In this document: positions 1,545 through 30,985 of the stretch, piece after piece
Layout of the letters: each line of letters starts with the position of its first letter
Position numbering within the stretch: position 1 is the stretch's first letter
Assembly (NCBI GenBank): GCA_029560465.1
Contig: JAKQKX010000063.1
Span: 3,796-67,795 of the forward strand
DNA: 64,000 nt
Direction of reading: 5' to 3'
Source of the DNA: Candidatus Omnitrophota bacterium
GTDB taxonomy: Bacteria > Omnitrophota > Gorgyraeia > Zapsychrales > JANLHA01
Notes under the pieces: generated by a model
Told to the model about the DNA's origin: nothing
The model's input: the letters and a program-made list of their open reading frames with translations, nothing else
The model's database searches: none
Position numbers and translations under genes: made by a program

Positions 1545-1600
1545 TATAACACTAATAGTATTATTATTCCGTCAATAATCCATAAAAAAGAGGGGCAATA

Positions 1601-10156: not shown

Positions 10157-12601
10157 GTGGATCCGAAAAGAAATGAAATGAAAGAGGTGTCGCAGCACGC
10201 CCTGGAGGTCTTTGAGGAGAGAAACCGGGCTTTTCGCGTGTTGTATGACACGATTATTGAGCTGGAAACATGTAAAGACGTTTCGCCTTATATTATCTTA
10301 GCCCGGAATCTAAAAAGAATATGCCAGGCCGAAGTCGTGGCCATCGGCCATATTAAAGACGGCTTTTGCGACTTTTCTTTGGAATCGGTTGTCCCTGAAT
10401 CAGGCGGAGACGGGGGAGGGCGCTTGCCGGACCCCACCCGGGTTACCATGCCCGAGGATGTCGCCCATTTATTAAGGAAGACGCCGCTAGAGGAGTGCCT
10501 CACGCCCGAAGCCTGCTTGGGTCCGGACTTTCTTAAGGCCGTGCTTAACGGCCGCTATTCGCATGAGGCGTTCTCTTTTTTCCGCTTTTCCTGCAAGAGT
10601 GATGAGCGTTTGATCGCCGCGGGCATGATTGCGGTTGATAAAGCGCGAAAAATTAAGACTCGGGATATTATTGAAATCTACCTTAATTTCGCTGGAATGG
10701 TGATTGAGCGTTTCTATTCGATCGAGATTATTAAGGATAGCGAGAGAACCTTAAAGCAACTTCTTGATTCCATCCCAACGGGAATTATGATCATCGATAG
10801 CCGGGCGAAATGTGTTTTGGGTGCCAATACCGCGGCCCGGGCATTGATCGGTTGCCAGGGGCGCAATATTATCGGGGCGTCTTGCAAGGATTTGTTTTGT
10901 TTGAATACCGGAGAAGGCTGCCCGATTACGGACAAGAAAATGAAGACGGATTTTTCCGAACAGCAGTTACGGAAAGATAACGGGGACATCCTGCCTGTTT
11001 TAAAAAGTGTTGTTCCGATTCAATTGAACGGCCGGGATGTTTTTATTGAAAGCTTTATCGATATTTCCGAACGCAAGCGCAGCGAGGCGGTTATCGCTGA
11101 AGAAAAGGAACGGCTGGCCGTGACCCTGCGGTCTATCGGGGACGGGGTTATTACCGTCAACCGGAAGAAGGAGATCCTGTTGATCAATAAGGTGGCGGAA
11201 AGCCTGCTGGGAGTCCGGCAGGTTGAGGTGGCCGGAAAAAATTTTGATGAAACGGTCCGCATCCTTGATGCCAAAACCCAAGAGCCCATCAGGGGGTTCA
11301 TGGACCGGGTGGTGGAGAAGGGGGACATTGTCGAATTGCGCGAAGGGCTCCTTGTGTCCCGGGACGGAATTCATAAGCTGATCAGCGACAGCGTCGCGCC
11401 GATCCGGAATGTAGACAGTGAGATTATTGGGGCGGTTTTGGTGTTCCGGGATATCAGCGAGAAACGCCGGATGGAAGAGGATCTTATCAAGAAGCAGAAG
11501 CTGGACTCTTTGGGGCTTTTGGCCGGCGGGATCGCGCATGATTTTAATAATATTTTGGCGGTGATCGTGACCCAGGTGGCCATCGCGAAACTTACCGATG
11601 GCATTGACGCGCCTATCAAACAAATGCTGGAAGACATTCAAGCGGAGGCTTTGCGCGCGAGGACCCTGACCCAGCAGTTGATGACGTTTTCCAAAGGGGG
11701 AGCCCCGGTCAAGAAACTGGCCTTTTTAAAAGAGGTTATCATGGAATCGAGCAAATTTGTTTTGCATGGCTCGAATGTTTTATGCGAATTTTCCATCCCC
11801 GACGACCTTTGGGCGGTTGAGATCGATGAGGGGCAGATTAATCAGGTTATTCAGAACATGGTTCTGAACGCCCAGCAAGCCATGCCCCAGGGCGGGAAGG
11901 TTTATATCACCGCGAATAATATTTCTCTCCGGGAGCGGTTTCAAAGTTTGCAGGCCGGTTCGTATGTCCGCCTGGACATCGCGGATTCCGGAGAGGGCAT
12001 TGATCCGGAGATTCAGGAGAAAATTTTCGACCCGTATTTCACGACAAAGCCCTCGGGAACAGGGTTGGGGCTGGCCATTGTTTTTTCTATTGTTAAGCAC
12101 CATGGCGGCATGGTGGTCGTTGAATCGGATCTGGGCAAGGGCGCGCTGTTTTCGGTTTATTTGCCGGCGTGCCAGGATGTTCCCGTGAGGCAGCCCAGCG
12201 AGAAGAAAGACATTCCGGTCTTGTCCGGGCATAAAAAGATTCTGTTAATGGATGACGAGGACGCGTTGCGCAATTCGATGGCCAGTTTACTTAAGAATTA
12301 CGGGTTTGATGTCCACGCGGTGGCGCACGGAGAAGACGCGCTTCAGAAATTCCAGAAAGAAAAAATCGCCCAACAGCCTTTTGACCTGGTGATCCTGGAT
12401 TTAACGATCAAAGGCGGGCTGGGGGGGAAAGAGACGGCGTGGAAGCTGCGGGAGGTTTCCCGGGATGTTAAAATCATCGCGGCCAGCGGGTATTCGCAGG
12501 ATCCGATTTTAGCCCATTACCAGGAATATGGCTTTGATGGAATTGTGGTCAAGCCTTTCACCATGGATGAGCTGATACACGCGATCAATTCGTTATTATA
12601 G
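10157..12601 (+). CDS. Hybrid sensor histidine kinase (PAS domains, HisKA, HATPase_c, C-terminal receiver)
   Basis: H-box LAGGIAHDFNNILAVI, G-boxes DSGEGI and GTGLGL, C-terminal receiver KILLMDDEDALR...DLVILDL...K. GTG start. Confidence 0.85.
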   Translation: MDPKRNEMKEVSQHALEVFEERNRAFRVLYDTIIELETCKDVSPYIILARNLKRICQAEVVAIGHIKDGFCDFSLESVVPESGGDGGGRLPDPTRVTMPEDVAHLLRKTPLEECLTPEACLGPDFLKAVLNGRYSHEAFSFFRFSCKSDERLIAAGMIAVDKARKIKTRDIIEIYLNFAGMVIERFYSIEIIKDSERTLKQLLDSIPTGIMIIDSRAKCVLGANTAARALIGCQGRNIIGASCKDLFCLNTGEGCPITDKKMKTDFSEQQLRKDNGDILPVLKSVVPIQLNGRDVFIESFIDISERKRSEAVIAEEKERLAVTLRSIGDGVITVNRKKEILLINKVAESLLGVRQVEVAGKNFDETVRILDAKTQEPIRGFMDRVVEKGDIVELREGLLVSRDGIHKLISDSVAPIRNVDSEIIGAVLVFRDISEKRRMEEDLIKKQKLDSLGLLAGGIAHDFNNILAVIVTQVAIAKLTDGIDAPIKQMLEDIQAEALRARTLTQQLMTFSKGGAPVKKLAFLKEVIMESSKFVLHGSNVLCEFSIPDDLWAVEIDEGQINQVIQNMVLNAQQAMPQGGKVYITANNISLRERFQSLQAGSYVRLDIADSGEGIDPEIQEKIFDPYFTTKPSGTGLGLAIVFSIVKHHGGMVVVESDLGKGALFSVYLPACQDVPVRQPSEKKDIPVLSGHKKILLMDDEDALRNSMASLLKNYGFDVHAVAHGEDALQKFQKEKIAQQPFDLVILDLTIKGGLGGKETAWKLREVSRDVKIIAASGYSQDPILAHYQEYGFDGIVVKPFTMDELIHAINSLL

Positions 12602-12663
12602 TTTTTTGAGCTCCGCGCTTTCGTGCGGCACATTCTCGCCTTGGCGTGGTATAATCAGGCATC

Positions 12664-13755
12664 ATGATACACCGTAAAGACACGAAGATCCCCGGCATCA
12701 AACTTTTTCTCACCTACCTTCACAAAGGGTTGTTCGCCGTTAACCTGCGGATGCTCAAGAATTTCATTTTTTCCAGGTTGAGGCGCACGCAGCTGGAGCG
12801 GATTTTTGTCTGCCCGTCGCATGCCTGCAATGCCCGCTGCGTCCACTGTTATGAGAATTTTTCCGGACAGCCCGCCGCCTCGCTCACCACCGACGACGTT
12901 CATAACATCGTCGAGCAGTTCCACGCCTTGGGCGGGTATCAGGTCTATTTTTGCAGCGGTGAATTTCTTTTGCGCCCGGACGCCCTGGCGCTTATCCGTT
13001 ACGTGTCGTCCAGGCATATGGTGAGCAGTATCACGACTAACGGCTTGCTTTTAAGCGGCCCTTTGCTTGATGACTTAAAAGCCGCCGGCCTGACCGAGCT
13101 TATTGTTTCGATCGACAGCGCTGACCCGCGGCGCCATGATGAGCGGCGCGGGGTGCCGGGCTGTTTTGAAAAGGCGGCCGCCGGGCTTAAATTGGCGCGT
13201 GAGAGAGGGATCATCACCTATATCTGGACATATGTTTCCAGGTCCAACGCCGATGAGCTGGACGGGATCATCGCCCTCGGCCAGCGGCTGCAGGTTGAGC
13301 TGGTTTACGTGTTTTTCCCGCTTTTGTCCGGAAAATTCTTTGACCGTTTTGACGAAAATTTGTCTTTTGAGGAAAGGGAAGAATACCGGCACCGGTATAA
13401 CGAACGGGAGGGCGTTCTGCTCGAGTTCCCCACCGAAGGGACCCCGTGCACCGGCGGGGGGCTTGACCATGTGTGTGTCATGCCGTCCGGGGACGTGACG
13501 TTTTGCCCCCCGGTCCCGTATTCCTACGGCAACGTCCACACAACGCCTCTGAAGGAGTGTCTTCGGGCCGCGCGCGAGGACTACCGGCGTTTCCCGCAAT
13601 GCACCCGGGGGCAATGCCCGGTCAATTTCCCGGAATACCGGGATAAGTGCCGCGCCCGGTTTCTTCATCAACCGTCCCCGCCGGAAACGGATTCAAGGGA
13701 AGGCGAAACTTTATCCCGCAGGGAAGGGGCTTCTGATTTTAAATGGCATAAATAA
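12664..13755 (+). CDS. Radical SAM enzyme with C-terminal SPASM/twitch-like cysteine cluster
   Basis: CNARCVHC (Cx3Cx2C radical SAM motif); C-terminal cysteines CTGGG...CVMPSGDVTFCPP...CTRGQCP. Confidence 0.8.
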   Translation: MIHRKDTKIPGIKLFLTYLHKGLFAVNLRMLKNFIFSRLRRTQLERIFVCPSHACNARCVHCYENFSGQPAASLTTDDVHNIVEQFHALGGYQVYFCSGEFLLRPDALALIRYVSSRHMVSSITTNGLLLSGPLLDDLKAAGLTELIVSIDSADPRRHDERRGVPGCFEKAAAGLKLARERGIITYIWTYVSRSNADELDGIIALGQRLQVELVYVFFPLLSGKFFDRFDENLSFEEREEYRHRYNEREGVLLEFPTEGTPCTGGGLDHVCVMPSGDVTFCPPVPYSYGNVHTTPLKECLRAAREDYRRFPQCTRGQCPVNFPEYRDKCRARFLHQPSPPETDSREGETLSRREGASDFKWHK

Positions 13756-15906: not shown

Positions 15907-16830
15907 ATGATAATTCTTATTACAGGACTGCTTGTCGGCGTATCGGAAAGAGTCATTGCCTGGCGTTGGCTGCGCGCGGAAACTCAAGCGCGAGGCGAAC
16001 ATTTTGTTTTATGGGCCACTCTTACCGTCGTGTTCCCCCTGATCGGACTCCCGCTCTACCTTCTTTTCCGTTCCCATGCCCGCCTGTTTTCCTGTCCGCA
16101 CTGTCAGTCCCCGTCGCCAGAGGGCCGTCCCCGTTGCCTGCACTGCGGCACGGCCTGGCCCGCTTCCGGAGCGGATGATGGGGATGCCCTGTCCTGGAAG
16201 TTCCCTGACGGTGTCGTGGTCCCCCTGGCGGCCATCGCCGCTGTCGCCATGAGGCCTCTGTTCGCGTCTTTGCGGTTTTATGACAGACAGATACTTCTGC
16301 GGCCGGGGCTCGCGCTCATTTTAATCGGCGTAACGTACGCTTTATTGATAGGGATATACGCGTGGATCCTCGTCAAAACGCAGCGCGCCGGATGGCAAAA
16401 CAACCCTTTGCCGCTGTTAACCGGAGTCACCCTCGCCCTGGCCACGATTGTCCGCCTCGGCGGCATCAGGAGCGGAGGAATGGTGGTGATCGCCGCGGGC
16501 GTCCTCGTTTTGGCGATCGCTCTGGTCATGTCCGCCAGCCTGCATCTGGCGGTGTATGACGTTCGCCGGACAGTCATGGGGCTGGCGCTCGGGTGGATCG
16601 TTGCCGTCATCACGAATATTTTGGCGATGCCGTATTTCGGTATCACCCAATTCCCGATGATGATATTGCTCATAGCCCCGTTTATGTTGGCTGCCGCGGC
16701 CCTGTCTTTGCGCGCGCGGTTTGTCCGCGGTTCCGACCCGCGGTTGCGTGTCGCGTTCCTTCAGGTCGCCGCGCCGCTTTGGGGGCTGCTGGGCATCGCG
16801 CTTCTGATGGCGTTTCTGGCGAATCACTAA
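15907..16830 (+). CDS. Polytopic membrane protein with PLDc_N-like N-terminal helical hairpin and a CxxC...CxxC zinc-ribbon loop
   Basis: WRWLRAE...VLWATLTVVFPLIGLPLYLLFR resembles the cardiolipin-synthase N-terminal (PLDc_N) motif; CPHCQSPSPEGRPRCLHCG; 6-7 further TM helices. Confidence 0.5.
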   Translation: MIILITGLLVGVSERVIAWRWLRAETQARGEHFVLWATLTVVFPLIGLPLYLLFRSHARLFSCPHCQSPSPEGRPRCLHCGTAWPASGADDGDALSWKFPDGVVVPLAAIAAVAMRPLFASLRFYDRQILLRPGLALILIGVTYALLIGIYAWILVKTQRAGWQNNPLPLLTGVTLALATIVRLGGIRSGGMVVIAAGVLVLAIALVMSASLHLAVYDVRRTVMGLALGWIVAVITNILAMPYFGITQFPMMILLIAPFMLAAAALSLRARFVRGSDPRLRVAFLQVAAPLWGLLGIALLMAFLANH

Positions 16831-16885
16831 AGCCCTGAGGACAGAGAGTGTCGTTGAATTTAGACGTTAAAAAGGAGAAAAGCCG

Positions 16886-17446
16886 GTGATGGATATTATC
16901 CTGGAGGTCTTGCGGACGGTCATGGTGGGCGTCATCCTGTGGGTGCTGTTTCGAAGACGGAATTTGATGGAACTCAGTCAAATTGAAGGGTGGCGGCACT
17001 TGACAATCGGGTTCGCCTTGGTTTTTTTCGGGACACTGATTGACATCACGGATAATTTTGAGCGTCTAAATCAATTTATCATCATCGGCGACACGCCCGC
17101 GCAGGCGTTCTTGGAAAAAGTCGTCGGCTACCTTTTTGGCTTCATGTTTTTGGCGATGGGAATATTGCGGTGGCTGCCCAAGGTCGTGGAACACCAGGAG
17201 TCGATGAAGAAGGATCTTCAGCAGGCGGAAAGCAAGGTGAAAATTCTCAGCGGCTTTCTTCCTATCTGCGCCTCATGCAAGAAGATTCGCAATGATGCTG
17301 GATATTGGACGCAGATCGAATCTTACATCCGTGACCATTCGGAAGCCGAGTTTTCGCACAGCATTTGCCCGGAATGCATGAAGAAGCTTTACGCTGAATT
17401 TTCAAGGGAAAAGGATGCCCCTGCCGAACAACCGCGTCAACTTTGA
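16886..17446 (+). CDS. Membrane protein with conserved C-terminal Cys/His module (CxxC...H...CPxC)
   Basis: Three to four N-terminal TM helices, then LPICASCKKIRNDAGYWTQIESYIRDHSEAEFSHSICPECMKKLY. Confidence 0.55.
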   Translation: MMDIILEVLRTVMVGVILWVLFRRRNLMELSQIEGWRHLTIGFALVFFGTLIDITDNFERLNQFIIIGDTPAQAFLEKVVGYLFGFMFLAMGILRWLPKVVEHQESMKKDLQQAESKVKILSGFLPICASCKKIRNDAGYWTQIESYIRDHSEAEFSHSICPECMKKLYAEFSREKDAPAEQPRQL

Positions 17447-17460
17447 AAGGCGGGCCTGTT

Positions 17461-18486
17461 TTATTGATGCGGCTCGATGATGACTTTAAGCGAGTCTTGC
17501 GCTTCCGCCACCAATTGGAAGCCCCGCCCGGTTTCTTTAAGCGGCAAACGGTGCGTGATTAAAGGGGTTATATCGACGCGCCTGGAGCGCAGGAGTTCGA
17601 TCGCCACCACCGCGTCATACGGCGCGTTGCCGTATGAGGGCGCGAGTTTGATTTCGTTGCGCCAGAAATCATTGAGCGGCACGGGCAGCTCTACCCCCGG
17701 CACGGTGCAGGCAAAGGCCAAAACCATTCCGCCCCGCTCCACCGACCGCAACGCCTGTTGAAACGCGGTTAAGGCCCCGGTGCAGACAATCGCCAGGTCC
17801 GCCAGCCAGCCGCCGTTCATTTCCCTGACCAGTTCCGGCACGTCTTCTTTAGCGTCGATCACCGCGTCGGCGCCTAATTGTTTCGCCATCCTTAACCGGT
17901 ACGCGTTGATGTCCACGGCGATGATCCGGCCCGCGCCAACGGCTTTAGCGGCCAGAATGTGCAGCAGCCCGGAAATGCCGCTGCCAATGACCAGGACCGT
18001 CTGCCCTGGTTTTAAGGCAGCGATGCGCTGGCCGCGGATCACGCAGGCCAGGGGCTCGATAAACGCGCCGTCTTCATAGGAGACTTCCGGCGACAGCACA
18101 AACACGCCGCGGTCAACGTTCAAGGCCGGCACGCGGATGTATTCGGCAAACCCGCCTGGAAAATAATTCGTGGTGTGCAGGGTTTCGCAGGCCGTGTGGT
18201 AACCGGCCAGGCAATACCGGCACGTGTTGCAGGGGATGTGGTGCGAAACAAAAACACGATCGCCCGGCTTGTACTTTTTCACGCCTTCGCCAATTTCCGT
18301 GATGTCCCCGGCGATTTCATGGCCCAGCACAATCGGCGCTTTTTTGATGCGGTACCACTCCAAAACGTCGCTGCCGCAAATGCCGCTGGCGATGACTTTG
18401 ACCACCAGCTCGCCCGGCCCGGCGTGGGGCGTGGGCATCTCCTCAAGCCGCACATCCTTGTTGTTGTAATACATCGCGACGTTCAT
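17461..18486 (-). CDS. Zinc-dependent alcohol dehydrogenase (MDR family; sorbitol/threonine dehydrogenase-like)
   Basis: GICGSD...GHEIAGD catalytic Zn motif, structural Zn Cys cluster CNTCRYC...C, Rossmann GSGISG. Confidence 0.85.
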   Translation of the reverse strand: MNVAMYYNNKDVRLEEMPTPHAGPGELVVKVIASGICGSDVLEWYRIKKAPIVLGHEIAGDITEIGEGVKKYKPGDRVFVSHHIPCNTCRYCLAGYHTACETLHTTNYFPGGFAEYIRVPALNVDRGVFVLSPEVSYEDGAFIEPLACVIRGQRIAALKPGQTVLVIGSGISGLLHILAAKAVGAGRIIAVDINAYRLRMAKQLGADAVIDAKEDVPELVREMNGGWLADLAIVCTGALTAFQQALRSVERGGMVLAFACTVPGVELPVPLNDFWRNEIKLAPSYGNAPYDAVVAIELLRSRRVDITPLITHRLPLKETGRGFQLVAEAQDSLKVIIEPHQ

Positions 18487-20663: not shown

Positions 20664-20866
20664 TTGGGGGACATGTACCTAATTCGCTTATGAATTAGGT
20701 GCGTGTCCCCGGAATTTACTGCTTATACGACGTTCCGGATAAGTGATATTACAGGGCAAATGGATACCATTTTATAAAAAACAGGGCTATAATAATGAAA
20801 AATCGGGGTAAAAATTGAATTATTCAAATGCCAAGAAACAACGCCAACCAGCAAATGGATAAGTCG
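20664..20866 (+). repeat. Copy 1 of a ~200-bp repeated intergenic element containing a 19-bp-stem hairpin (20667-20710)
   Basis: Near-identical to 27733-27972 (a few substitutions plus a 47-nt indel). Hairpin GGGGACATGTACCTAATTC-GCTTAT-GAATTAGGTGCGTGTCCCC. Lies between a GC-rich upstream gene and an AT-rich downstream cassette. Confidence 0.85.
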
Positions 20867-20905
20867 TTAAAGAAACGTTCGGCATGGAAACGCATATAAC
20901 ACAAA

Positions 20906-22054
20906 ATGACTATTGATCAAAAATATCAAATTGATTTTGTATTAGTAACTCACACCAAAGGTATCTTTTTTAATCCACATCGTCCTGAAGGTTTAGCGTT
21001 CACGCCTTCCACTAAAACAGGGTTGCGTTTCGTTCTCAAGCCATCAGACCCAAAAGGCGATGCGTGTGGTCATCGGGAGGGACTTGAATGCAGACTTTAT
21101 TCATCATATCCGGCAACGAAAGAACAGTTTGATTTTGTAGTTGCAATAAATAATCATAGGGTTATGCTTCGCGTTGCTGATGATATTTCTCTCCCATATA
21201 AACCGAAAGAAGAAATCCTTATAAATAAGGATGGTAAATACAAAGACGGTTTTTCTCCGCGTCGTTATTTGTGTCCATCTGATATTCAACAACTAATAAA
21301 AAATGTCGAGTCGGAACTAGCCTCTCAAACAAGTCAGTTTCTTAAACTGCTTCGATGGCGTCAAGGGATTGATGCTCCAGGCGAAGTTATAGAACACCGA
21401 TCACTTTACTGGAAAGTTGAAGCGGGGGATTGTCATTCAGTCCCTTTAGACGGTGGGTCGCACCATACGGTTGTAGTGCCGGAGATGTATGGCATACATT
21501 GGGATTCTGCTGATTCAGTAGATTTACAAAAGCTTTGGGCACAGGATGATATTGCAGAGCCCCTTGGGCATGCTTTAGTAAGAGAAGCAGCAGCTCTTGC
21601 TTCCGAGTCTCCAAGGAGTGCAATATTAATTATGACAGCAGCACTTGAAACAGCGGTTAAAATGCATATTAGCAACATTGCGCCTGATACGGATTGGCTA
21701 ATGGAGGAAATACCGTCACCACCAATTTTCAAGATGCTACGAGACTATATCCCTTTAATTCATGGTAGACGAGGCAGTGGGTTAGTCTGGTGGGTGAATG
21801 TGAACCCCTTTGTTAAGAAGGTGCAGAAACTTATTGAACTTCGTAACAAGGTCGCGCACACTGGGAAAATTCCTCAGGATGCTGCCCCCATTCATGAGAA
21901 CCTCGAATTAGTATCCGATCTGCTCTATTTGTTGGATGTGTTGGCTGGTCACGATTGGGCAAAGTCACTTGCAAGTCATAAATTTCGTGAAGCACTTGGT
22001 TGGCCCAACCCAACTCATGGCAGGACGACAAGCAAGATAACATGGGGACATTAG
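20906..22054 (+). CDS. AT-rich hypothetical protein with C-terminal HEPN-like domain (Rx4H motif; DUF4145/Apea-like)
   Basis: GC far below window average. C-terminus ...ALETAVKMHISN...VKKVQKLIELRNKVAHTGKIP contains the R-x4-H HEPN signature after a conserved helix; N-terminal ~250 aa unknown. Confidence 0.5.
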   Translation: MTIDQKYQIDFVLVTHTKGIFFNPHRPEGLAFTPSTKTGLRFVLKPSDPKGDACGHREGLECRLYSSYPATKEQFDFVVAINNHRVMLRVADDISLPYKPKEEILINKDGKYKDGFSPRRYLCPSDIQQLIKNVESELASQTSQFLKLLRWRQGIDAPGEVIEHRSLYWKVEAGDCHSVPLDGGSHHTVVVPEMYGIHWDSADSVDLQKLWAQDDIAEPLGHALVREAAALASESPRSAILIMTAALETAVKMHISNIAPDTDWLMEEIPSPPIFKMLRDYIPLIHGRRGSGLVWWVNVNPFVKKVQKLIELRNKVAHTGKIPQDAAPIHENLELVSDLLYLLDVLAGHDWAKSLASHKFREALGWPNPTHGRTTSKITWGH

Positions 22055-22275
22055 AACTAAACAAAGTGGGAATGCCGAACAAGCGCATTCACGCGGGCGC
22101 CGCTACGCGTCGCCGGTGATGCACAGGCGTTAGATGTAAAATAAGGAACAATAATGGACATAATTTCCCCATTAATAATAGTAGTTTTATTTTACAGAAT
22201 TAAATTAGGTGATGAGCGAAAATTCGGGATATTAGCTTTTGATATTCCTAAATAGTAAGCGTTCGGGGGTAATTA

Positions 22276-23268
22276 ATGATGGATAACGCAAAATTGATAT
22301 TTCAACAGTTCGCAAATGATGGTATTGACTATATTTATCAGAATATACTAAGTAAGTCATTAGAAGATACATGGGTTGAATGTAAAGGCAAAAGCGATCC
22401 CTCGCACCCAACACTAGACGAAAAGGATAAGTCAAATTTTGCAAAGAATTTGTCTGGTTTTGCTAATACAAGCGGTGGCGTTTTAATTTTTGGGTTAAAA
22501 GCAACAAAGAATTCAGAAGGATTTGACGTCGTTACAGGGGTACAGCCTATTAAAGACATAGATTCATTTGAAGCTGCTTTAAGAGAACAGGAACCTCGTA
22601 TAGTTGAAAGGGCAATATCAGGAATAGAATATAAAAGGATTTATACTGACAAAAATAAAAAAGAAGGCATTTTGCTTGTTTATGTCCCCGAGAGTACCAA
22701 TCCGCCTCATAGAAGTGTGAAAGACAAACATTTTTATCTGCGGGCTGGAGGGTCTTGTTATCCAATGGATTTGCCTCAGATTGAAAGTTTGGTACTTAAA
22801 AATATAAAACCAGAATTAGAAATAGATTTCTTTTTTCTTACGAATATGAATATATCAGATCCCCAGCAAGATTCAAGGGTGGATTTCATTATGGATTTTC
22901 AAATAAAAAATATCGGTAGAGCCATGGCCAAGAATATATTCGTAAGATTAGAGTTTCCTGGTGGGGGTATATATGAAATTTTCCCAGCTAAAAAAGGTGT
23001 CTATGATAAAGCCAACACGGAAACAAAAAGTGTCGTCTACGATTGGCATTATGATAAACCTATCCATCCTAATATATGCGTTCCAATAGAAGAGGCGACG
23101 CTTTTAGTATCTTGTAACTGCAGAATACCTCTTAGTTTTCCTCGATTCTTATTTGATGTTTCCATTTGTGCCGAGAACATGACATTGAAGTCAAAGAATT
23201 ACAATAAAAGCGGAGACGAAATGTTTAAGTTATTAATGGATCGAGGGGTAAGAAGAAAAATAACATGA
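22276..23268 (+). CDS. AlbA_2 / Schlafen-like (divergent AAA, putative DNA-binding) domain protein
   Basis: EDTWVECKGKSD...LSGFANTSGGVLIFGLK matches the AlbA_2 core (E..E.K....AFANT.GG.L..G). AT-rich. Confidence 0.6.
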   Translation: MMDNAKLIFQQFANDGIDYIYQNILSKSLEDTWVECKGKSDPSHPTLDEKDKSNFAKNLSGFANTSGGVLIFGLKATKNSEGFDVVTGVQPIKDIDSFEAALREQEPRIVERAISGIEYKRIYTDKNKKEGILLVYVPESTNPPHRSVKDKHFYLRAGGSCYPMDLPQIESLVLKNIKPELEIDFFFLTNMNISDPQQDSRVDFIMDFQIKNIGRAMAKNIFVRLEFPGGGIYEIFPAKKGVYDKANTETKSVVYDWHYDKPIHPNICVPIEEATLLVSCNCRIPLSFPRFLFDVSICAENMTLKSKNYNKSGDEMFKLLMDRGVRRKIT

Positions 23269-23283
23269 TGAGTCCTAGTCGAG

Positions 23284-23361
23284 TTATCACATCCTCGGCA
23301 TTAACGCCGTGATGTTTTTTGTCATCGTTGCCGCTGCGCTTTATGGCAAGTCAACCGCGCT
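23284..23361 (+). pseudogene. 78-bp fragment of the cation-diffusion-facilitator gene (identical to 30234-30311)
   Basis: Perfect nucleotide identity over 78 bp to the internal part of the CDF gene at 30132-30773 (encodes LGINAVMFFVIVAAALYGKSTALLA); flanks differ on both sides. Confidence 0.85.
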
Positions 23362-23463
23362 GCTGGCTCTTTGGGGTGTCCATAACAACCGCATGAACCG
23401 GATCGTGTCCCTGTTGGGCCACTCCGGGTTATGCGCGGCGTTCGACGAAGAAAGGAGGACGCA

Positions 23464-24090
23464 ATGAAATTCAACTGCATAAACTGCGGACAGAGCTTGG
23501 AGGCTGATTCAGACATGGCCGGGACTTCGGTGACATGCCCGGTTTGTTCCAAAGACATAAAAGTGCCGGGCCCGAAGGACCAGCCGATCCGAGTCCGACG
23601 AACGACCCCACCGCCAGTTCCTCAACAGCCTTTTTCAGAGACATCCCCGCTCAACACGGGATTACAGCCCAGAAGCTTCTTCGGCACCGCGTCTATGATC
23701 TTTGGGGTCACGTCCCCTCTGTTTGCGCTTGGGTTCGACTTCCTGATGTCCCTGCAAACGGGTGTACCTTTCGGGAGAATGCTGACCATATCCATACCGA
23801 CGGGATTTATGTTCGGGCTCCTTTTCGGGCTGATCATGGCCGCATTCCTGAAAGCAGACACCATCACTGTCAACATCCGGGATAGAGATGACTTTGTCTC
23901 TCGAATCAATGTGGCCATGTCTCAGATCGGTTTCTATCCGGAAACGGGATCAGGCAACTTCCTGATCTTTAAACCTTCCTTTTGGGCCGGATTGATGTCC
24001 GGACGGTTTTCAATAGTAATTCAAGGCAGCAAAGCGACAATCGTAGGCCCGAGTAAGTATCTGAAGAATATCCAGAAGAGGTTCGTATAG
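23464..24090 (+). CDS. Zinc-ribbon (CxxC...CxxC) membrane protein, hypothetical
   Basis: MKFNCINCGQ...VTCPVCSK, then a Pro-rich linker and 2-3 TM helices; strong RBS GAAAGGAGG; GC like the host core genome. Confidence 0.55.
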   Translation: MKFNCINCGQSLEADSDMAGTSVTCPVCSKDIKVPGPKDQPIRVRRTTPPPVPQQPFSETSPLNTGLQPRSFFGTASMIFGVTSPLFALGFDFLMSLQTGVPFGRMLTISIPTGFMFGLLFGLIMAAFLKADTITVNIRDRDDFVSRINVAMSQIGFYPETGSGNFLIFKPSFWAGLMSGRFSIVIQGSKATIVGPSKYLKNIQKRFV

Positions 24091-24202
24091 GTAGTGCCGA
24101 ACAAGCCGGATGCATGCGACGGCTTGCAGCCGCGCGTGATGCGCAGGTGTTATTTTAGTTGATTTCATTGCAATTACTTATCATATATGTTAAGATTATG
24201 GC

Positions 24203-24841
24203 ATGGAATTTGAAGAGTTTGTGTATAAAGTACAAGATTTGCCGGTTATCATTACAGAATATTTTTCTGCCGGGCAGAAGGATAGTCTGCCGATGGAGGT
24301 CCAGTTAAGTCGTTGGAAAAAGTCCGGTAAAATTATTCAACTCAAGCGGGGGGTATATCTTTTAGCAGAACCTTACCGAAAACGGCAAGTTTACGAATTT
24401 TATCTTGCAGGCCTTCTCCAACAGCCTTCCTATATCAGTTTGGAAAAAGCTTTTGAATTTCATAATCTTATCCCTGAAGCCGTAAATAGCTTTACCAGCG
24501 TTACTCCTAAAAGACACGCATGTTATGAGACCCCTGTTGGTCGTTTTGATTATCGGCACATTCGAGAGTCATTATTTTGGGGATATCAATCCGTAACCCT
24601 TTATGGCCAGACGGCGTTTATGGCTTTGCCTGAAAAGGCGCTTTTGGATTTTTTTTATCTTTCCCCGCATGAGCCGGATGAAGATTATTTGAAGGAGATG
24701 CGTCTGCAAAATTTAGATTTAATTGAACCTGAAAAAATGGAGTATTTTTCGCGTAGATTTGGAAAGCCGAAGTTGCGGCGCACCGCCGAGGCGATGATCA
24801 AACTGTGTGAAAAAGAAAGACAGGAAGAAAAAACGTTATGA
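24203..24841 (+). CDS. abiEi: AbiEi-family antitoxin / transcriptional regulator (type IV TA, abortive infection)
   Basis: About 210 aa with an N-terminal winged-HTH-like region; 4-bp ATGA overlap with the downstream AbiEii nucleotidyltransferase gene. Confidence 0.65.
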   Translation: MEFEEFVYKVQDLPVIITEYFSAGQKDSLPMEVQLSRWKKSGKIIQLKRGVYLLAEPYRKRQVYEFYLAGLLQQPSYISLEKAFEFHNLIPEAVNSFTSVTPKRHACYETPVGRFDYRHIRESLFWGYQSVTLYGQTAFMALPEKALLDFFYLSPHEPDEDYLKEMRLQNLDLIEPEKMEYFSRRFGKPKLRRTAEAMIKLCEKERQEEKTL

Positions 24842-25659
24842 AAGATTATTGTTTAGAACTGGCGGCTGCTAAAAGTGGGTATGACGCTAAACTCAACACG
24901 ATGCGGGAATATTTACAGGCGTATATTCTGCGAATTATGCAACAACAGCATATTTTTAGAACGACAGCTTTTATGGGTGGTACGGCCTTAAGGTTCATAT
25001 ATAAATTACCCCGTTTTTCTGAAGACCTGGACTTTTCTCTGGTTGATCAACCGGATTGGAAGTTTGCCGATTTGATTGCCAATATTAAAAAACAATTTAT
25101 GGATGCTGGATATAATATTCATGTCAAATACAAGGATCAGAAAACAGTGCAACATGCTTTCTTCCATTTTGATCAACTTTTGTATGATGCGGACCTGTCA
25201 CCTATACGAGATCAAAAATTCAGCATCAAATTGGAGGTTGATACCAATCCACCGCTGGGTGCGGGAGTAGAAACAAAGGTTTCCAATATCTATTTCCCGG
25301 TCAGTTTCTTGACGTACGATCTGCCATCTTTGTTTGCCGGAAAGCTTCACGCTTTGTTGAGCCGCGGGTTTACCAAGGGCCGTGATTTTTATGATTTGGC
25401 CTGGTATCTTTCCCGCTTTGATGGTGGGATTAAACCAAATTTCAACATGCTTAATCATGCGCTTGTGCAGTCCCATTGGCAGGGGGCGGAGTTAAATGAA
25501 AAAAACGGGTGGTCTGAATTAACAAAAATCGTCAAGGCGGCTGACTGGAAAAAGGTCAGAGAGGATGTTGAGAAATTCCTTGAAAATCCCAAGGATATGG
25601 ATGTTTACACGCAAGAGACTGTGTTGGGATTAGTGGCGAGTTGGGATAAAGAAGAATAA
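24838..25659 (+). CDS. abiEii: AbiEii/AbiGii-family nucleotidyltransferase toxin (DUF1814)
   Basis: FMGGTALRFIYKLPRFSEDLDF matches the GGTAL...R.SxDxDF nucleotidyltransferase motif of AbiEii. Confidence 0.8.
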   Translation: MKDYCLELAAAKSGYDAKLNTMREYLQAYILRIMQQQHIFRTTAFMGGTALRFIYKLPRFSEDLDFSLVDQPDWKFADLIANIKKQFMDAGYNIHVKYKDQKTVQHAFFHFDQLLYDADLSPIRDQKFSIKLEVDTNPPLGAGVETKVSNIYFPVSFLTYDLPSLFAGKLHALLSRGFTKGRDFYDLAWYLSRFDGGIKPNFNMLNHALVQSHWQGAELNEKNGWSELTKIVKAADWKKVREDVEKFLENPKDMDVYTQETVLGLVASWDKEE

Positions 25660-25771: not shown

Positions 25772-26314
25772 ATGAACATGGCATCACGGCTTCTTCTTTT
25801 AACCGTATTCGTTAGCGTGTGTTCCGGATGTTGTGTCGCGTATGTTGTCACCGTGCCTGCCGCCGTAGTCAGCGCTGCTTTTATGAAAAAACATAAAGTC
25901 CATACTTCACAAGAGGTCCGCACGAAAGATGGCGCGCACGTTTATTTCTTGCAGCTGTCGGTCCCCCTGACAACGCTTCAAAAGGCCGACGGGCCGGAAC
26001 TGCTTTTTTTCTCGGTCATTGCGCGATCGCAATTTAATCCTGCAAAACCATGCGTATATCGGATATTTGCGCAAAAGATCCGGGATGGGAAAGAAGTCGG
26101 CGGCCCCGCCGTGGTCCTGGAATGGCGAATCAAGCATCCCCATGAGCCCCGTTGGGATATACAGGAGTTGTTTTTTGATCCCGTCAGAATGATTTCAGAT
26201 AAAAGGATAAGGGATACCGGAATCATCTATCGCGTTCGGGGCAAGAAAGCGGAGCGGGAACAATTTCTGGCTGTTCTTGAGAAAGACATTCTGGGCCGGA
26301 TTACCCAGGAATAA
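25772..26314 (+). CDS. Hypothetical lipoprotein/secreted protein
   Basis: Signal peptide with Cys-rich end LLLLTVFVSVCSGCC. Confidence 0.45.
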   Translation: MNMASRLLLLTVFVSVCSGCCVAYVVTVPAAVVSAAFMKKHKVHTSQEVRTKDGAHVYFLQLSVPLTTLQKADGPELLFFSVIARSQFNPAKPCVYRIFAQKIRDGKEVGGPAVVLEWRIKHPHEPRWDIQELFFDPVRMISDKRIRDTGIIYRVRGKKAEREQFLAVLEKDILGRITQE

Positions 26315-26352
26315 TGAGGGGGATTCTGACGGTATTATAAAGAAGGAGAATC

Positions 26353-26592
26353 ATGGATAAACAGATTTTTATATCTTTAGCGTGTATCATCGCGGGATTA
26401 TTCAGCTCAATTTGCGCCGGGATGGATTTTGATTTTTTTATGAATCACAGAAAAGCCCGATTCTTTGTGAAAATATTGGGCAGAAACGGCGCTCGGATTC
26501 TTTATGTTTTACTCGGCATCGCCATGATTATTGTTGGCGTTGGTTTTTTTACCGGGATCATCCCCTTGCAAGGGGAGCCTGTTTTTCAGTGA
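26353..26592 (+). CDS. Small membrane protein (2 TM), hypothetical
   Basis: ORF track; two hydrophobic helices; RBS AAGGAG. Confidence 0.35.
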   Translation: MDKQIFISLACIIAGLFSSICAGMDFDFFMNHRKARFFVKILGRNGARILYVLLGIAMIIVGVGFFTGIIPLQGEPVFQ

Positions 26593-26687: not shown

Positions 26688-27491
26688 ATGGCAAAAGCAT
26701 ACGTTCACGGATACGATCCGCGGGAGAACATTCGCTTACAGGATCAGGCCACCACCTTGGTTGACCTGCTGCATTCGGACACGGCCTATCCGGCGGGAAG
26801 CCGCGTCCTGGAAGCCGGCTGCGGAGTCGGCGCGCAAACGGTGACCTTGGCGAGAAACAGCCCCGGGGCGTCCATCGTGTCCATTGATATCGCGGAGGAA
26901 TCGCTCGCGCAGGCGGAGCGGATTGTCCGGGCGGCAGGGATGCCCAACGTCCGGTTCCAGCAGGCGGACATCTACCACTTACCCTTTGCCCCGCAATCAT
27001 TTGACCACGTCTTTGTTTGTTTTGTGCTGGAGCACTTGAGAGAGCCGGGCGCTGCCTTGCGGAAGCTGAAAGAGTGCCTGCGGCCGGGCGGAACCATCAC
27101 CGTCATTGAAGGCGACCACGGCTCTGCCTGCTTTCATCCCGACAGCGATGCGGCGCGCGCCGCGATTCACAGCCAGGTCGAATTGCAGTCTCGCGCGGGC
27201 GGCAACGCGCTCATGGGAAGGGCGCTGTATCCGTTGCTGGTTACAGCGGGCTATCGTGATGTCCGGGTGTCCCCCCGGATGGTATATGTTGATTCCAGCA
27301 AGCCGGAACTGGTCGACGGATTCACGAAGAAGACATTTACGGCGATGATCGAGGGTGTGCGTCAATCGGCGATCGAGGAGGGCGTCATCGAGCCCGCGCT
27401 GTTCGACCAGGGAATCAAGGACCTGTACCGAACGGCCGAGCCCGACGGCACATTCTGCTACACCTTTTTCAAAGCCCTGGGAAAAGCATGA
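26688..27491 (+). CDS. Class I SAM-dependent methyltransferase
   Basis: VLEAGCGVGAQTV motif I, acidic motif II ISIDIAEE, FDHVFVCFVLEHL; RBS GGGAGGA. Confidence 0.75.
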   Translation: MAKAYVHGYDPRENIRLQDQATTLVDLLHSDTAYPAGSRVLEAGCGVGAQTVTLARNSPGASIVSIDIAEESLAQAERIVRAAGMPNVRFQQADIYHLPFAPQSFDHVFVCFVLEHLREPGAALRKLKECLRPGGTITVIEGDHGSACFHPDSDAARAAIHSQVELQSRAGGNALMGRALYPLLVTAGYRDVRVSPRMVYVDSSKPELVDGFTKKTFTAMIEGVRQSAIEEGVIEPALFDQGIKDLYRTAEPDGTFCYTFFKALGKA

Positions 27492-27733: not shown

Positions 27734-27972
27734 GCCGGGTTTTGGGGACAGATGACTTAATTCGCTTATGAATTAGGTGCGTATCCCCGGAATTTTGGAA
27801 TTTGCCCGGAATTTCTGTGTTAAAGTGGAAACCCTGATTATCCGACGTTCCGGATAAGTGATATTACAGGGCAAATGGATACCATTTTATAAAAAACAGG
27901 GCTATAATAATGAAAAATCGGGGTAAAAATTGAATTATTCAAATGCCAAGAAACACCGCCAACCAGCAAATG
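27733..27972 (+). repeat. Copy 2 of the repeated intergenic element with hairpin (27735-27779)
   Basis: See copy 1. Carries an extra 47 nt with three reiterations of CCGGAATTT; again directly 5' of an AT-rich cassette. Confidence 0.85.
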
Positions 27973-28011
27973 GATAAGTCGTATAATAATTGTTCGCTAT
28001 AAGGGATATAG

Positions 28012-28605
28012 ATGACAGAGCAAGAAAAGAGGAATATTGAAGAATCAATTGATAACGTAAAAAACGCCTTCCAGAGAGCGCCAAACGTCCTTCTTACTGA
28101 GGAAGATCTTCGTGTGCACCTTTGCCATAGACTTATCAATCATTTCGGTACGGAAAATAGGACAAACGATGGCGACATATCAATATCATTACATACGGAA
28201 ATACGCTGGTACGGGAATGGAAATCTAAAGACTCGATCTGATATTGTGCTTGTTGACGTTTCAAGTCTTGACGTTAGTAAGCATTTTAAACTGCCTAGCA
28301 AAGGTTATGGATTCAACATTCCTAAGGCTATTATTGAATTGAAATTCCGCCGTCCGAACGGAGAAGCTACATCCCAATTTCTTAAGAAGATACGTCAAGA
28401 TATCATAAAGCTTCAAGAACTCATCCGAGTTTTTGAGACTGTTCAAGGACAAAACACGGTTGCGTTCTGGATGGTCGTATTTGACAAGAAGCACAATATT
28501 CAGTGTAATATTGACGAACTAAAAATTCCACCCGGTGTGAATGTTACATATTGTTTTGCAGAAAGTAGCGAACAAACGCCTGCACCGGACGCTGTGCGCC
28601 GGTGA
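28012..28605 (+). CDS. AT-rich hypothetical protein with PD-(D/E)xK nuclease-like motif arrangement
   Basis: Helix with E (EEDLRVHLCHRLINHF), beta-strand ending in D (RSDIVLVD), then AIIELKF (ExK); spacing typical of restriction-endonuclease-like fold; GC roughly 35%. Confidence 0.5.
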   Translation: MTEQEKRNIEESIDNVKNAFQRAPNVLLTEEDLRVHLCHRLINHFGTENRTNDGDISISLHTEIRWYGNGNLKTRSDIVLVDVSSLDVSKHFKLPSKGYGFNIPKAIIELKFRRPNGEATSQFLKKIRQDIIKLQELIRVFETVQGQNTVAFWMVVFDKKHNIQCNIDELKIPPGVNVTYCFAESSEQTPAPDAVRR

Positions 28606-28639
28606 GGTGCCGCGTTAGATTTATAGAAAAGGGGGTTTT

Positions 28640-29017
28640 ATGACTCAGCTAATAATTGGTTATTTAATATCTACAGTTGTTGGAGCATTTATCATGAAGT
28701 TTGTTATGGAGAAAAAAGTATGGGGAAAATGGCTGCAAGATAAAGAAGAAAAAAATGAAGATAAGAAAAAAAATATAAAAAAAATATCAATGCTAGTGGG
28801 CATTCTTGAACGTGTTTTATATACTACCGCAATAATAATGGGCCAATATTCTTTTATTGCTATATGGTTAGGTATTAAAGTTGCACCAAAATGGGGCAAG
28901 TGGCATGAGGAAGAAAATCGTGGTATCTTTAATGCATTTTTGATAGGCAATGCGTTATCTATTATCATAGCCTTCGTGGGAGCATGGGTTATTAAACCAA
29001 GTATTCTTAAAATATAA
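28640..29017 (+). CDS. Small 4-TM membrane protein with K/E-rich cytoplasmic loop
   Basis: Four hydrophobic helices; loop KEEKNEDKKKNIKK; RBS AAAGGGGG; very AT-rich. Confidence 0.5.
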   Translation: MTQLIIGYLISTVVGAFIMKFVMEKKVWGKWLQDKEEKNEDKKKNIKKISMLVGILERVLYTTAIIMGQYSFIAIWLGIKVAPKWGKWHEEENRGIFNAFLIGNALSIIIAFVGAWVIKPSILKI

Positions 29018-29193
29018 TCAGGAAATCTAACACCTATAAGGCCCCGGAAGTCGAGATAAAGAGTTTGCCCGACGAAGATTTTTAAAGATTTTTGAAATTT
29101 ATAAAGAAGAGTTGTTCATTGGATTTGTGTAAAAATGTCTATCTGTGGATTGGGCGGCAATCCGGTTGTCGGTATATTGAGGAGGTTGCGTTC

Positions 29194-29907
29194 ATGGTTC
29201 TACGAGAATGTCCGTCTGAGGAAGAGTGGAACGAGATTTTTGGCAATTCTCTATTCCCGGATATCCTAAAATTTGTAGATAGTTTAAAACGTTCTGGTAA
29301 GACTTATGAAGATGGCTTTGAATTTATACGGGGAATAGAAACGCGTGAATATTACTTTCAACTTCGCCACAGAATAGCAGATACAGCAATAAGTTATGTG
29401 TTTGTAGTGTACTTCTATAATAAGGGTATACCTGATAAACGTTGGTCTGTTTCTCCCGGCAGGGACGGATGTTCTGTGGAATACTTCCCAGATTTTGAAA
29501 ATATACATTATGAAATAAAGAAATGGTTCGACTACTATTCTGACGTTTTCTACTATAAGTTATTTTCGGCCCTAGACATCGTTGGTCATATCTTAAACAA
29601 CACTCAAAATCTTAAGATCAAAAAAAGTAAAGTTTCGTTTTCCAGAAGCCTCAGAAAACTTGAGGGCATCAATGATGAATTATTTGAAACCATTAATTCC
29701 ATCAATCAAAATCAGGATTTTAAGACGGCCCAAGAAATTAGAAATGATATAACACATAATTACTTGCCAAGCTCAGTGGGGGTTTCTGTAACTATTGATG
29801 AAAAGCAAGGAATCGTTGGAGAAAGAGCTTACATTACCTCCTGTGATATCATTAACAATATTAACTCAATGCTTAAATTGTTTAAGCAAATTTTAGACGC
29901 TATATGA
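29194..29907 (+). CDS. Abi-like protein with C-terminal HEPN motif (Rx4H)
   Basis: TAQEIRNDITHNYLPS carries R-x4-H; start chosen at ATG 29194 preceded by GAGGAGG (track lists a TTG at 29092); AT-rich. Confidence 0.5.
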   Translation: MVLRECPSEEEWNEIFGNSLFPDILKFVDSLKRSGKTYEDGFEFIRGIETREYYFQLRHRIADTAISYVFVVYFYNKGIPDKRWSVSPGRDGCSVEYFPDFENIHYEIKKWFDYYSDVFYYKLFSALDIVGHILNNTQNLKIKKSKVSFSRSLRKLEGINDELFETINSINQNQDFKTAQEIRNDITHNYLPSSVGVSVTIDEKQGIVGERAYITSCDIINNINSMLKLFKQILDAI

Positions 29908-30131
29908 AAAATAGCCCAACAAAAAATGCAGCGGATGCGTAGTCAGGCCCCTGATTTTGGGCGTTGTGTGAAAAAAAACAGGGGAAACTTGTCCACACAA
30001 ATAATCCAACCCTGCCATCTGTTATGGGGCAATACATCACCCCTTTCTTTGTACAGGATAAAAATGGCTAAAAATATTCCACTAACGATTCAATTGAGCG
30101 GATCGGCCTTGCGGCCTCCCGCTTATTTTGG

Positions 30132-30773
30132 ATGTTAGATCGCTATAAGGATTGCGCTATGAGTGGTTGTTGTGACAAGGATTGTTCTTTAGAACGCCTG
30201 CGGGAACGGCAGCGCGGAACGTTGCAAATTGTCCTCGGCATTAACGCCGTGATGTTTTTTGTCATCGTTGCCGCTGCGCTTTATGGCAAGTCAACCGCGC
30301 TGCTGGCTGACAGTCTTGATAATCTTGGAGACGCATTGACATACGGCCTTAGCCTCTACGCGGTTTCGAGGGGCACTGCCGTTAAGGCCAAAGTCGCCCT
30401 GTTTAAGGGCGGGCTTATTTTCCTGGCGGCTGTTACCGTGGCCGCTCAAATTATTTACAAGTTTTTTGTCCCAGGTCTGCCCATTTTCGAGGTTATGGGC
30501 GCGTTCAGTCTTCTTGGCCTTGCCGCAAACTCCCTTTGTCTTTTTCTGCTGTGGCGACATCGCCACGAAGATGTGAATATGAGTTCCGTGTGGGAGTGCT
30601 CGCGAAACGACATCGCATCCAATCTTTCGGTTTTCGTGGCGGCCGGCGCGGTCTGGTTCACCGGTTCAGGCTGGCCTGATATTGTGGTTGCCGTGGGTCT
30701 CGTGTGGCTTTTAATGCGTTCCGCTCTTCGCGTTATTTCTTCAGCGATGGTAGAGCTTCGTACGGCAGCCTGA
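30132..30773 (+). CDS. Cation diffusion facilitator (CzcD-like) transporter, short form (213 aa, TM domain only)
   Basis: Cys-rich N-terminus CAMSGCCDKDC, TM helices with DSLDNLGDALTYGLSLYA (CDF signature-like). The cytoplasmic C-terminal domain found in most CDFs is absent. Confidence 0.7.
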   Translation: MLDRYKDCAMSGCCDKDCSLERLRERQRGTLQIVLGINAVMFFVIVAAALYGKSTALLADSLDNLGDALTYGLSLYAVSRGTAVKAKVALFKGGLIFLAAVTVAAQIIYKFFVPGLPIFEVMGAFSLLGLAANSLCLFLLWRHRHEDVNMSSVWECSRNDIASNLSVFVAAGAVWFTGSGWPDIVVAVGLVWLLMRSALRVISSAMVELRTAA

Positions 30774-30920
30774 CAATTCGCTCAACACGGACGGGTCAAA
30801 GCACCGCAGGAGTAAAACAACAACCGCTTCGCGGACAACCGCAGGACAAGGCTGTTGAGCAACAGTTCGAGGATGAATAAAGAATATGTCTAGGGACCTG
30901 CTCCCCGGGAAAGACTGCGA

Positions 30921-30985
30921 TTGCAGGATCAGGCGGCCACTCTGGTTGACTTGTTGCGTTCCGGCCATGGGGCGCTTCCGGCTGT
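30921..30985 (+). pseudogene. Diverged remnant of a paralogous methyltransferase N-terminus (homologous to 26733-26795)
   Basis: About 72% nucleotide identity over ~58 nt; encodes RLQDQAATLVDLLRS versus RLQDQATTLVDLLHS in the intact MTase; reading frame diverges afterwards. Confidence 0.35.

Follow-up and report, generated by a model that had tools for sequence, protein, structure and literature searches.

The 64-kb stretch of a Candidatus Omnitrophota chromosome analyzed here (the window, whose positions are used throughout) carries two adjacent AT-rich genes, one for a 382-aa protein with a HEPN-type C-terminal domain (P1) and one for a 330-aa protein with a Schlafen/AlbA_2 domain (P2). A previous reading of the sequence alone had proposed that the two form a single system. 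Our analyses point instead to two consecutive, independently acquired gene cassettes, which probably lie in an integrase-less array resembling a cluster of attC sites lacking integron-integrases (CALIN) and do not form an operon; P1 and P2 would each be self-contained. We do not interpret them as a two-gene system because an attC-like site lies between the genes, the genes belong to separate units of DNA homology, and they were not found together at any of the other loci compared. This corrects a tempting mis-annotation, in which adjacent RNA-targeting genes in an AT-rich patch look like a two-gene system when they are probably stand-alone modules. The domain calls of the sequence-only reading hold, and its interpretation as a whole is partly supported.

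Both open reading frames (ORFs) were found at exactly the coordinates first proposed (Table 1). Their strong AT-richness relative to the surroundings was also borne out: the GC content is 0.43 for P1 and 0.35 for P2 (0.34 and 0.30 at third codon positions, GC3), compared with a GC of ~0.60 and a GC3 of 0.72-0.80 in the flanking RlmL-like, DeoC, and ADH genes. As the sequence-only reading had noticed, both genes come after the first copy (copy 1) of a repeated element, here called repeat A, which matches a second copy in the window at 95% identity (20677-20881 and 27755-27996). Each copy heads a short array, referred to here as slot 1 (P1, P2, and a zinc-ribbon gene) and slot 2.

The boundaries of the P1 unit were evident from comparisons with other contigs. 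DNA homology of this unit to contigs L038, L039, and L001 (77-81% identity) starts at 20876, 20877, and 20873, respectively, at the GTT triplet 20877-20879, and stops at 22083 or 22061, within the left arm of an attC-like site. This site occupies the 221-nt spacer between P1 and P2, which holds GCCGAAC-AAGCG-CATTCAC...GTGATG-CACAGGC-GTTAGAT. The elements are in the order R''/L''/L'/R', the consensus layout of attC sites, and form a bottom-strand hairpin (z -1.8). All attC-like sites in this study were called with our own heuristics. A GTT(C/A)GGC box is located ~25-30 nt before the P1 start codon in the window and in five other contigs. Downstream of the P1 homologues in L038, L039, and L002 are longer and clearer attC sites, imperfect hairpins with one extrahelical base (z -2 to -3.9), and the left arm of the site in the window is homologous to theirs. 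The homology boundaries, the GTT box, and the attC-like site downstream thus indicate, at the level of sequence, that P1 is a discrete cassette, bounded by G|TT and with its own attC as integron gene cassettes are.

P2 lies in a different mobility unit. Its DNA module, common to unrelated contexts, matches L033 over 22229-23290 at 86.5% identity and L032 over 22265-23290 at 84%, and this homology stops one base short of a 77-nt sequence, repeat B (23292-23368). Repeat B is 100% identical to 30232-30308 inside the intact cation-efflux gene (30132-30773); this fragment of the gene sits isolated downstream of the P2 module, ahead of the next attC-like site (arm score 19, hairpin -14.7 kcal/mol).

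The backbone of a sister Omnitrophota strain (GCA_030153525.1) matches the window at 97.5-98.7% identity, and both slots of that strain hold different cargo (L041/L042, locus positions 11383-12688 and 16516-18480). Slot 1 of the sister strain holds a 143-aa gene and a HEPN_AbiU2 gene instead of P1, P2, and the zinc-ribbon gene, and slot 2 holds four other small ORFs instead of the genes for a 197-aa protein, a 125-aa protein, and a HEPN_Cthe2314 protein. Synteny breaks at 20874 and 27994, at the GTT ends of both repeat-A copies, and resumes at 24163 and 30134, the latter being the G of a GTTAGAT box; in both strains an attC-like hairpin lies ahead of this box. Three HEPN families occupy the two slots across both strains, and given the HEPN_Cthe2314 gene in slot 2, HEPN cassettes are a recurrent feature of this locus. 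With its like backbone and swapped cargo, this strain pair provides a clean natural case of cassette turnover at an integrase-less array.

Repeat A itself (~220-250 nt) contains a 19-bp hairpin (20667-20711 in copy 1, z -3.5), the palindrome TTGAATTATTCAA, and, in copy 1, a direct repeat of AAGAAAC (20833-20839 and 20871-20877). No RNA family was found by an Rfam scan in repeat A, nor in the rest of the window except for two tRNAs. A metagenome scan for repeat A identified one extra contig (L040), from another organism, where the last 75 nt of the repeat recur between genes (1215-1289 and 2124-2354). The four repeat-A ends, two in the window and two in L040, are alike up to an invariant GTT and are then followed by four unrelated genes. 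Repeat A is the putative left attachment point of cassettes, with its terminal GTT as the junction where they join.

We also considered whether the AT-rich block could be an ordinary genomic island or prophage remnant that was swapped by homologous recombination between core genes, its AAC...GTT hairpins being terminators or chance palindromes. The window has no integrase, generic attC scans show little enrichment, and the flanking homology could drive the replacement of cargo between strains. We nevertheless consider this explanation quite unlikely, since three independent comparisons each place the ends of homology at GTT triplets and the P1 gene is accompanied by its upstream GTT box and an R''/L''/L'/R' hairpin downstream in five or more unrelated contigs. 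The attC-like sites are moreover without T-tracts, and there were no phage-family matches. Sites of the attC-like kind are next to five of the eight slot ORFs versus nine of the 63 other ORFs (p = 0.006). Our heuristic finds six such sites between 22.0 and 30.2 kb, with a high background. One further match, at 8280-8328 on the reverse strand, was rejected as a probable chance occurrence within a coding ORF.

The genomic neighborhoods of homologues were used to evaluate whether P1 and P2 belong together. Among 25 genomic loci of P1 relatives, from many phyla, none had a P2-family ORF within 8 kb, and no AlbA_2 neighbor was present beside the P1 homologues of 79, 76, and 72% identity wherever flanks exist. 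P2 homologues likewise have other surroundings. The homologue with 80% identity abuts the gene for a type I restriction R subunit (hsdR), the one with 79% identity lies in a serine-recombinase element, and the two with 51% identity are found in an SMC/PLD/HEPN_Swt1 island and downstream of a SIR2-like gene. Outside this strain, co-occurrence was therefore seen at none of the 25 genomic P1 loci, on neither of two further close P1 contigs, and in none of four divergent P2 contexts, and the pairing that the sequence-only reading took for a single Schlafen and HEPN system is not conserved. The exact pair was recovered from six metagenome contigs; these are all 99.9-100% identical to the window and therefore represent the same strain, not independent occurrences.

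A true two-gene defense operon of HEPN and Schlafen proteins, with sensor and executor split between them or with two ribonucleases acting jointly, is thus highly improbable and was rejected on the basis of these neighborhoods. The adjacency of the genes, their shared orientation and similar AT-richness, the lack of a clear terminator between them, the predicted RNA targeting by both proteins, and the six contigs with the exact pair all speak for an operon. Set against these are the origin of the six contigs from one strain, the absence of AlbA_2 neighbors from all 25 P1 loci, the other partners of the P2 homologues at 80, 79, and 51% identity, the spacer with its attC-like site, the differing units of DNA homology, and the fact that the pSlfn5 architecture seen in P2 (below) functions as a single gene.

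Some of the P2 neighborhoods deserve mention in their own right. In L033 (95-4581), the stop and start codons of hsdR and the close P2 homologue overlap by one base, while in L037 (2-3791) a P2 homologue lies downstream of hsdR and a SIR2-like gene. The hsdR products of both contigs have a C-terminal Peptidase_S24-like segment. A 382-aa neighbor of the P2 homologue in L037 was evaluated as a P1 relative and discarded; it gave no BLASTP match to P1 and is SIR2-like, and its equal length is a coincidence.

P1 consists of a beta-rich N-terminal domain and long helix (residues 1 to ~210) followed by a HEPN-type domain (residues ~215-350). HEPN domains are defined by an Rx4-6H motif with a polar N, D, or H after the R, placed at the end of helix 3 where it enters the loop to helix 4, and helix 2 of the superfamily bears another conserved acidic residue, usually as part of Ex3[KR] (Anantharaman et al., 2013, PMC3710099). 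The motif, its position, and the acidic residue in helix 2 were all found in P1. The ELRNKVAHTG segment singled out by the sequence-only reading is present, and among 39 close homologues and 46 relatives of 22-30% identity R313 and H318 are invariant; N314 is at least 90% conserved in these relatives and invariant in the close set. In the AlphaFold2 model (mean predicted local distance difference test, pLDDT, 84), the motif closes helix 294-319 and is followed by a loop (320-328) and a further helix (329-346). E248-T-A-V-K252 lies within helix 236-258, with E248 and K252 invariant in both alignments of relatives (A3 and A7).

Profile searches were consistent with this assignment. P1 scores 17.7 bits against HEPN_RiboL-PSP (cutoff 28.4), aligning only to profile positions 140-184 of 191. 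The same family is matched by 21 of the 39 close members (best E 4e-6) and 19 of the 46 distant members (best E 2e-7), or 40 of 85 at E≤0.01, and the remaining Pfam matches of family members are nearly all to HEPN-clan families. The sequence-only reading had likened the C-terminal domain to DUF4145. Its HEPN-type character stands, while the link to DUF4145 does not: no match to this Pfam family was found for P1 at E≤1 or for the 85 relatives at E≤0.01. RiboL-PSP-HEPN proteins are recognized by an L-PSP fusion or a ParB operon; P1 has no L-PSP domain, and no neighbor family recurs at its 25 loci. No relatives of the ~210-residue N-terminal domain were detectable, the P1 profile found no sequence in the PDB at E≤10 (3jrt included), and searches of NCBIfam and PHROGs returned nothing for P1. 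A phage or plasmid origin found no support, with no phage matches and one distant plasmid match. Clustered at 50% identity, the P1 family yields 1,481 or more clusters from many phyla; it is a large HEPN family without a described function, for which a candidate role in defense is plausible.

We also weighed the alternative that P1 has no antiviral role and works as a toxin in stress or dormancy, or stabilizes the cassette array as an addiction module. Induction of dormancy by integron-cassette HEPN ribonucleases has been hypothesized (PMC3710099), toxin-antitoxin genes are common in cassette arrays, and an AbiE pair adjoins slot 1. This alternative seems unlikely, as the ORF (20906-22054) fills the cassette (20878-22129) and leaves no space for an antitoxin, and a large conserved N-terminal domain is easier to reconcile with sensing or autoinhibition than with a bare toxin. 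In addition, cassette-borne HEPN proteins of the AbiU2 type have been shown to be phage-protective; one cassette-borne HEPN_AbiU2 protects against phage (bioRxiv 10.64898/2026.03.17.712381).

In P2, PF04326 (SLFN_AlbA_2) spans residues 30-165 and covers profile positions 1-118 of 118 with 58.6 bits (cutoff 25.3), confirming the AlbA_2 core that had been recognized from the sequence. Of the two domain families proposed for the pair, AlbA_2 thus passed its Pfam cutoff and the HEPN match of P1 fell under its own. The domain carries E30-DTWV-E35-C-K37, an Ex4ExK motif. Across 23 relatives, no substitutions occur at E30, K37, E104, or R146 or in the GFANTSGGV block, and residue 35 is acidic (E or D) in every one. 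Foldseek matched the N-terminal domain to the AlbA_2 structure 2kyy (E 1e-5). The C-terminal domain is all-beta over residues 181-311 of the AlphaFold model (pLDDT 87), and its top Foldseek matches are the ectodomains of integrins alphaV, alphaX, and alphaIIb (E 3e-6 to 1e-4) and macroglobulin receptor-binding domains. No helix-turn-helix (HTH) or ATPase domain was found in P2, where the only domain besides AlbA_2 is this Ig-like sandwich. The sole PHROGs match was weak, to a 'DNA helicase' family that contains AlbA_2.

Prokaryotic Schlafen proteins (pSlfn) have been searched for by a full-length PF04326 domain (>100 aa) and share the catalytic motif Ex4(E/D)xK (Perez Taboada et al., Nat Microbiol 2026, PMC13056530). 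In pSlfn5, the best-characterized class and the one to which RorSlfn5 belongs, a single protein combines an N-terminal Slfn nuclease with a C-terminal Ig-like sensor resembling integrin ectodomains (PMC13056530). The full-length domain, the motif, and the Ig-like C-terminal domain are all found in P2. Because of its AlbA_2 domain, its catalytic motif, and the integrin-like C-terminal domain in the model, we assign P2 the predicted architecture of pSlfn5, an assignment made by domains, motif, and model fold. The sequence-only reading could assign the pair to no named system; the architecture of P2 had in fact been named, as a single-gene one.

Many AlbA_2 proteins are labeled as 'ATP-binding protein', 'RecG-like', or 'helix-turn-helix', and P2 could accordingly be a nucleic-acid-binding regulator and not a nuclease. 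Its plasmid homologues bear the first of these labels, one database name is 'helix-turn-helix domain-containing protein', and 2kyy, the best match among solved AlbA_2 structures, covers the N-terminal domain of a protein related to RecG. The retention of Ex4(E/D)xK (E30, acidic 35, and K37) throughout the P2 subfamily, the Ig-like sandwich in place of any HTH or ATPase domain, and the consistent location of P2 homologues in defense or restriction-modification neighborhoods make a regulator very unlikely.

Taken as two self-contained cassettes, P1 and P2 would each act alone. P1 would be an autoinhibited single-polypeptide HEPN ribonuclease, in which the N-terminal domain senses a trigger, probably a phage component, and the HEPN domain (R313/N314/H318 with E248/K252) then cuts RNA without a metal and arrests translation in the manner of abortive infection. 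RorSlfn5 senses the T5 tail assembly chaperone and responds with Mn2+-dependent cleavage of the tRNA anticodon arm (PMC13056530). By analogy, the Ig-like domain of P2 may bind a phage structural or assembly protein, upon which the Ex4ExK nuclease would cleave tRNA anticodon arms in a Mn2+-dependent reaction. The ribonuclease activities and phage triggers of both proteins are predicted here from homology. An RNA-targeting or abortive-infection role, as the sequence-only reading suggested, is thus the best reading for each protein singly and not for a joint system. The attC-like sites may have been used, or may still be used, by an integron integrase encoded elsewhere. Integron cassettes are known to carry compact phage-defense genes (Kieffer 2025, Darracq 2025, Getz 2025), and interpretation of the locus as a defense bank fits these reports, including that of the active HEPN_AbiU2. 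More tentatively, P1 possibly acts against phages as a HEPN ribonuclease encoded by one gene, has a new type of N-terminal sensor, and has spread as an integron cassette; an atypical, integrase-distal element is possibly where cassettes attach and are still exchanged in Candidatus Omnitrophota.

Several observations weigh against the interpretation as cassettes that carry stand-alone defense genes. No IntI-like sequence was found in the window by tblastn with an IntI1 probe; the same probe did pick up a tyrosine recombinase in L002. The attC-like sites of the window are short and their folding is weak (z -1.2 to -1.8), and their enrichment beside stop codons is gone at a stricter score. Generic motif and inverted-repeat scans were at most marginally enriched over shuffles; end-motif co-occurrence was 11 versus 5.4 +/- 2.5 and arm complementarity 70 versus 40 +/- 10, neither being discriminating alone. 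A strict R''/R' complementarity scan and a minimum free energy scan for AAC-GTT pairing recovered none of the candidate attC sites. The terminal element of repeat A, which has no adjacent integrase, is not a typical attC and may be attI-like. There is no attC directly 3' of the P2 stop codon, the nearest site being displaced by 113 nt with the 77-nt cation-efflux fragment between, and P2 homologues elsewhere are not in attC arrays; P2 may thus have entered the array by another route. No HEPN family in Pfam is matched by P1 above its gathering threshold, neither sequence searches nor Foldseek gave P1 a significant match among solved structures, and PADLOC has no model for P1 or P2. Finally, the adjacency of the two genes in this strain could permit functional cooperation.

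The recombinase of L002 belongs to a separate observation. L002 was examined as a complete integron and rejected, as the recombinase it encodes scores below the IntI cutoff and is a transposase of the IS91 type. This IS91-family transposase (1267-2892, reverse strand) has an N-terminal tyrosine-recombinase domain and adjoins a long attC (2960-3090, arm score 28), and the P1-homologue cassette of L002 lies beside it in an integrase-less array.

The regions next to the slots contain further genes of interest. Directly after slot 1 is a complete AbiEi/AbiEii pair (24203-25659), a type IV toxin-antitoxin/abortive infection system that is kept in the sister strain and begins ~1 kb downstream of P2. 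It is followed by genes for a 180-aa protein and a 79-aa homologue of the immunity protein Imm17 (25772-26592, 39 bits), which may be what is left of a polymorphic-toxin module. A degraded copy (71%, 83 nt) of the 5' end of a methyltransferase gene (26694-26776) is found at 30879-30961, downstream of the cation-efflux gene, and suggests an older rearrangement or duplication of the backbone. The 197-aa and 125-aa proteins of slot 2 could not be assigned to a family. Elsewhere in the window, a composition scan identified AT-rich patches at 1-5, 36-37, 47-48, 57-59, and 61-62 kb, and a pair of 44-nt inverted repeats (57462-57505 and 61842-61885) lies 4.3 kb apart; these patches and the repeat pair may mark further islands.

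Table 1. Coordinates of the genes, cassette units, repeats, and attC-like sites of slots 1 and 2 in the window.
Feature	Position	Strand	Description
Repeat A, copy 1	20664-20879	+	Hairpin 20667-20711, AT-rich stretch, ends in GTT 20877-20879
P1 cassette	20878-22129	+	Single-gene unit, from TT of upstream G|TT to G of its own attC R' box
P1 gene	20906-22054	+	382 aa; N-terminal domain and HEPN-type domain with E248x3K252 and R313-N314-x3-H318
attC-like site of P1 cassette	22074-22135	+	R'' GCCGAAC 22074-22080, L'' CATTCAC, L' GTGATG, R' GTTAGAT 22129-22135
Second unit	22130-23439	+	P2, 77-nt repeat B, and terminal attC-like site
P2 DNA module	22229-23290	+	Common to unrelated contexts
P2 gene	22276-23268	+	330 aa; Schlafen/AlbA_2 nuclease domain residues 30-165, Ig-like beta-sandwich ~178-312
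attC-like site closing P2 unit	23381-23446	+	CATAAC...GGCGTTCGAC; R' GTTCGAC 23440-23446
Third slot-1 cassette gene	23464-24090	+	208-aa zinc-ribbon and transmembrane protein
attC-like site ending slot 1	24096-24155	+	GCCGAAC...GGTGTTATTT
Repeat A, copy 2	27745-27994	+	Ends in GTT 27992-27994; heads slot 2 (27995-30133)
197-aa ORF	slot 2		attC-like site 28567-28620, R' GTTAGAT
125-aa membrane ORF	slot 2		
HEPN_Cthe2314 protein	29092-29907	+	98.7 bits; attC-like site 29914-29969 downstream
Terminal attC-like site of slot 2	30083-30140		

The locus as a whole resembles integron arrays that act as defense banks, namely the bacteriophage resistance integron cassettes (BRiCs), sedentary chromosomal integrons, and CALINs (Kieffer 2025, Darracq 2025, Getz 2025). 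Its units are co-oriented, AT-rich, and mostly single-gene, with AAC...GTT imperfect hairpins, G|TT junctions, and strain-specific cargo, and both it and these arrays include toxin-antitoxin genes and compact defense genes. Unlike these arrays, the locus has no intI nearby and is hosted by the phylum Omnitrophota, and it consists of two short arrays, each headed by a repeat of ~220 nt that is neither a typical attC nor a known attI.

P1 shares with the HEPN Abi-type ribonucleases (RiboL-PSP-HEPN, AbiD/AbiF, and AbiU2; Anantharaman et al., 2013, PMC3710099) an RNx3H motif that closes helix 3, an Ex3K motif within helix 2, and a location in mobile or defense surroundings; a helical insert between helices 2 and 3, frequent in the superfamily, may be present as well. 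Its similarity to HEPN_RiboL-PSP (Pfam) is weak but consistent; unlike those ribonucleases, P1 is sub-threshold and aligns to the Pfam model by its last two helices only. In contrast to RiboL-PSP-HEPN, it has neither the L-PSP fusion nor the ParB operon, and its ~210-residue N-terminal domain has no relatives that could be detected. The integron-cassette HEPN proteins of the PDB 3jrt family and the cassette-borne HEPN_AbiU2 (bioRxiv 10.64898/2026.03.17.712381) resemble P1 in that each cassette holds a single HEPN gene, but P1 is of another HEPN family with another architecture. A sizeable HEPN family that moves as an integron cassette is thus flagged as a reasonable candidate for defense screens.

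P2 compares most directly with pSlfn5 proteins such as RorSlfn5. In both, one polypeptide has an N-terminal PF04326 domain with Ex4(E/D)xK and a C-terminal Ig-like sandwich closest to integrin ectodomains, and both are found in defense-island neighborhoods. P2 is shorter than RorSlfn5 (330 aa versus ~43 kDa), has an extra N-terminal helix ahead of the motif (E30 versus E15 in RorSlfn5), and comes from Omnitrophota, whereas the hosts of pSlfn5 (RorSlfn5) are Enterobacterales. With its predicted architecture, P2 would extend the pSlfn5 class to a distant and little-studied phylum.

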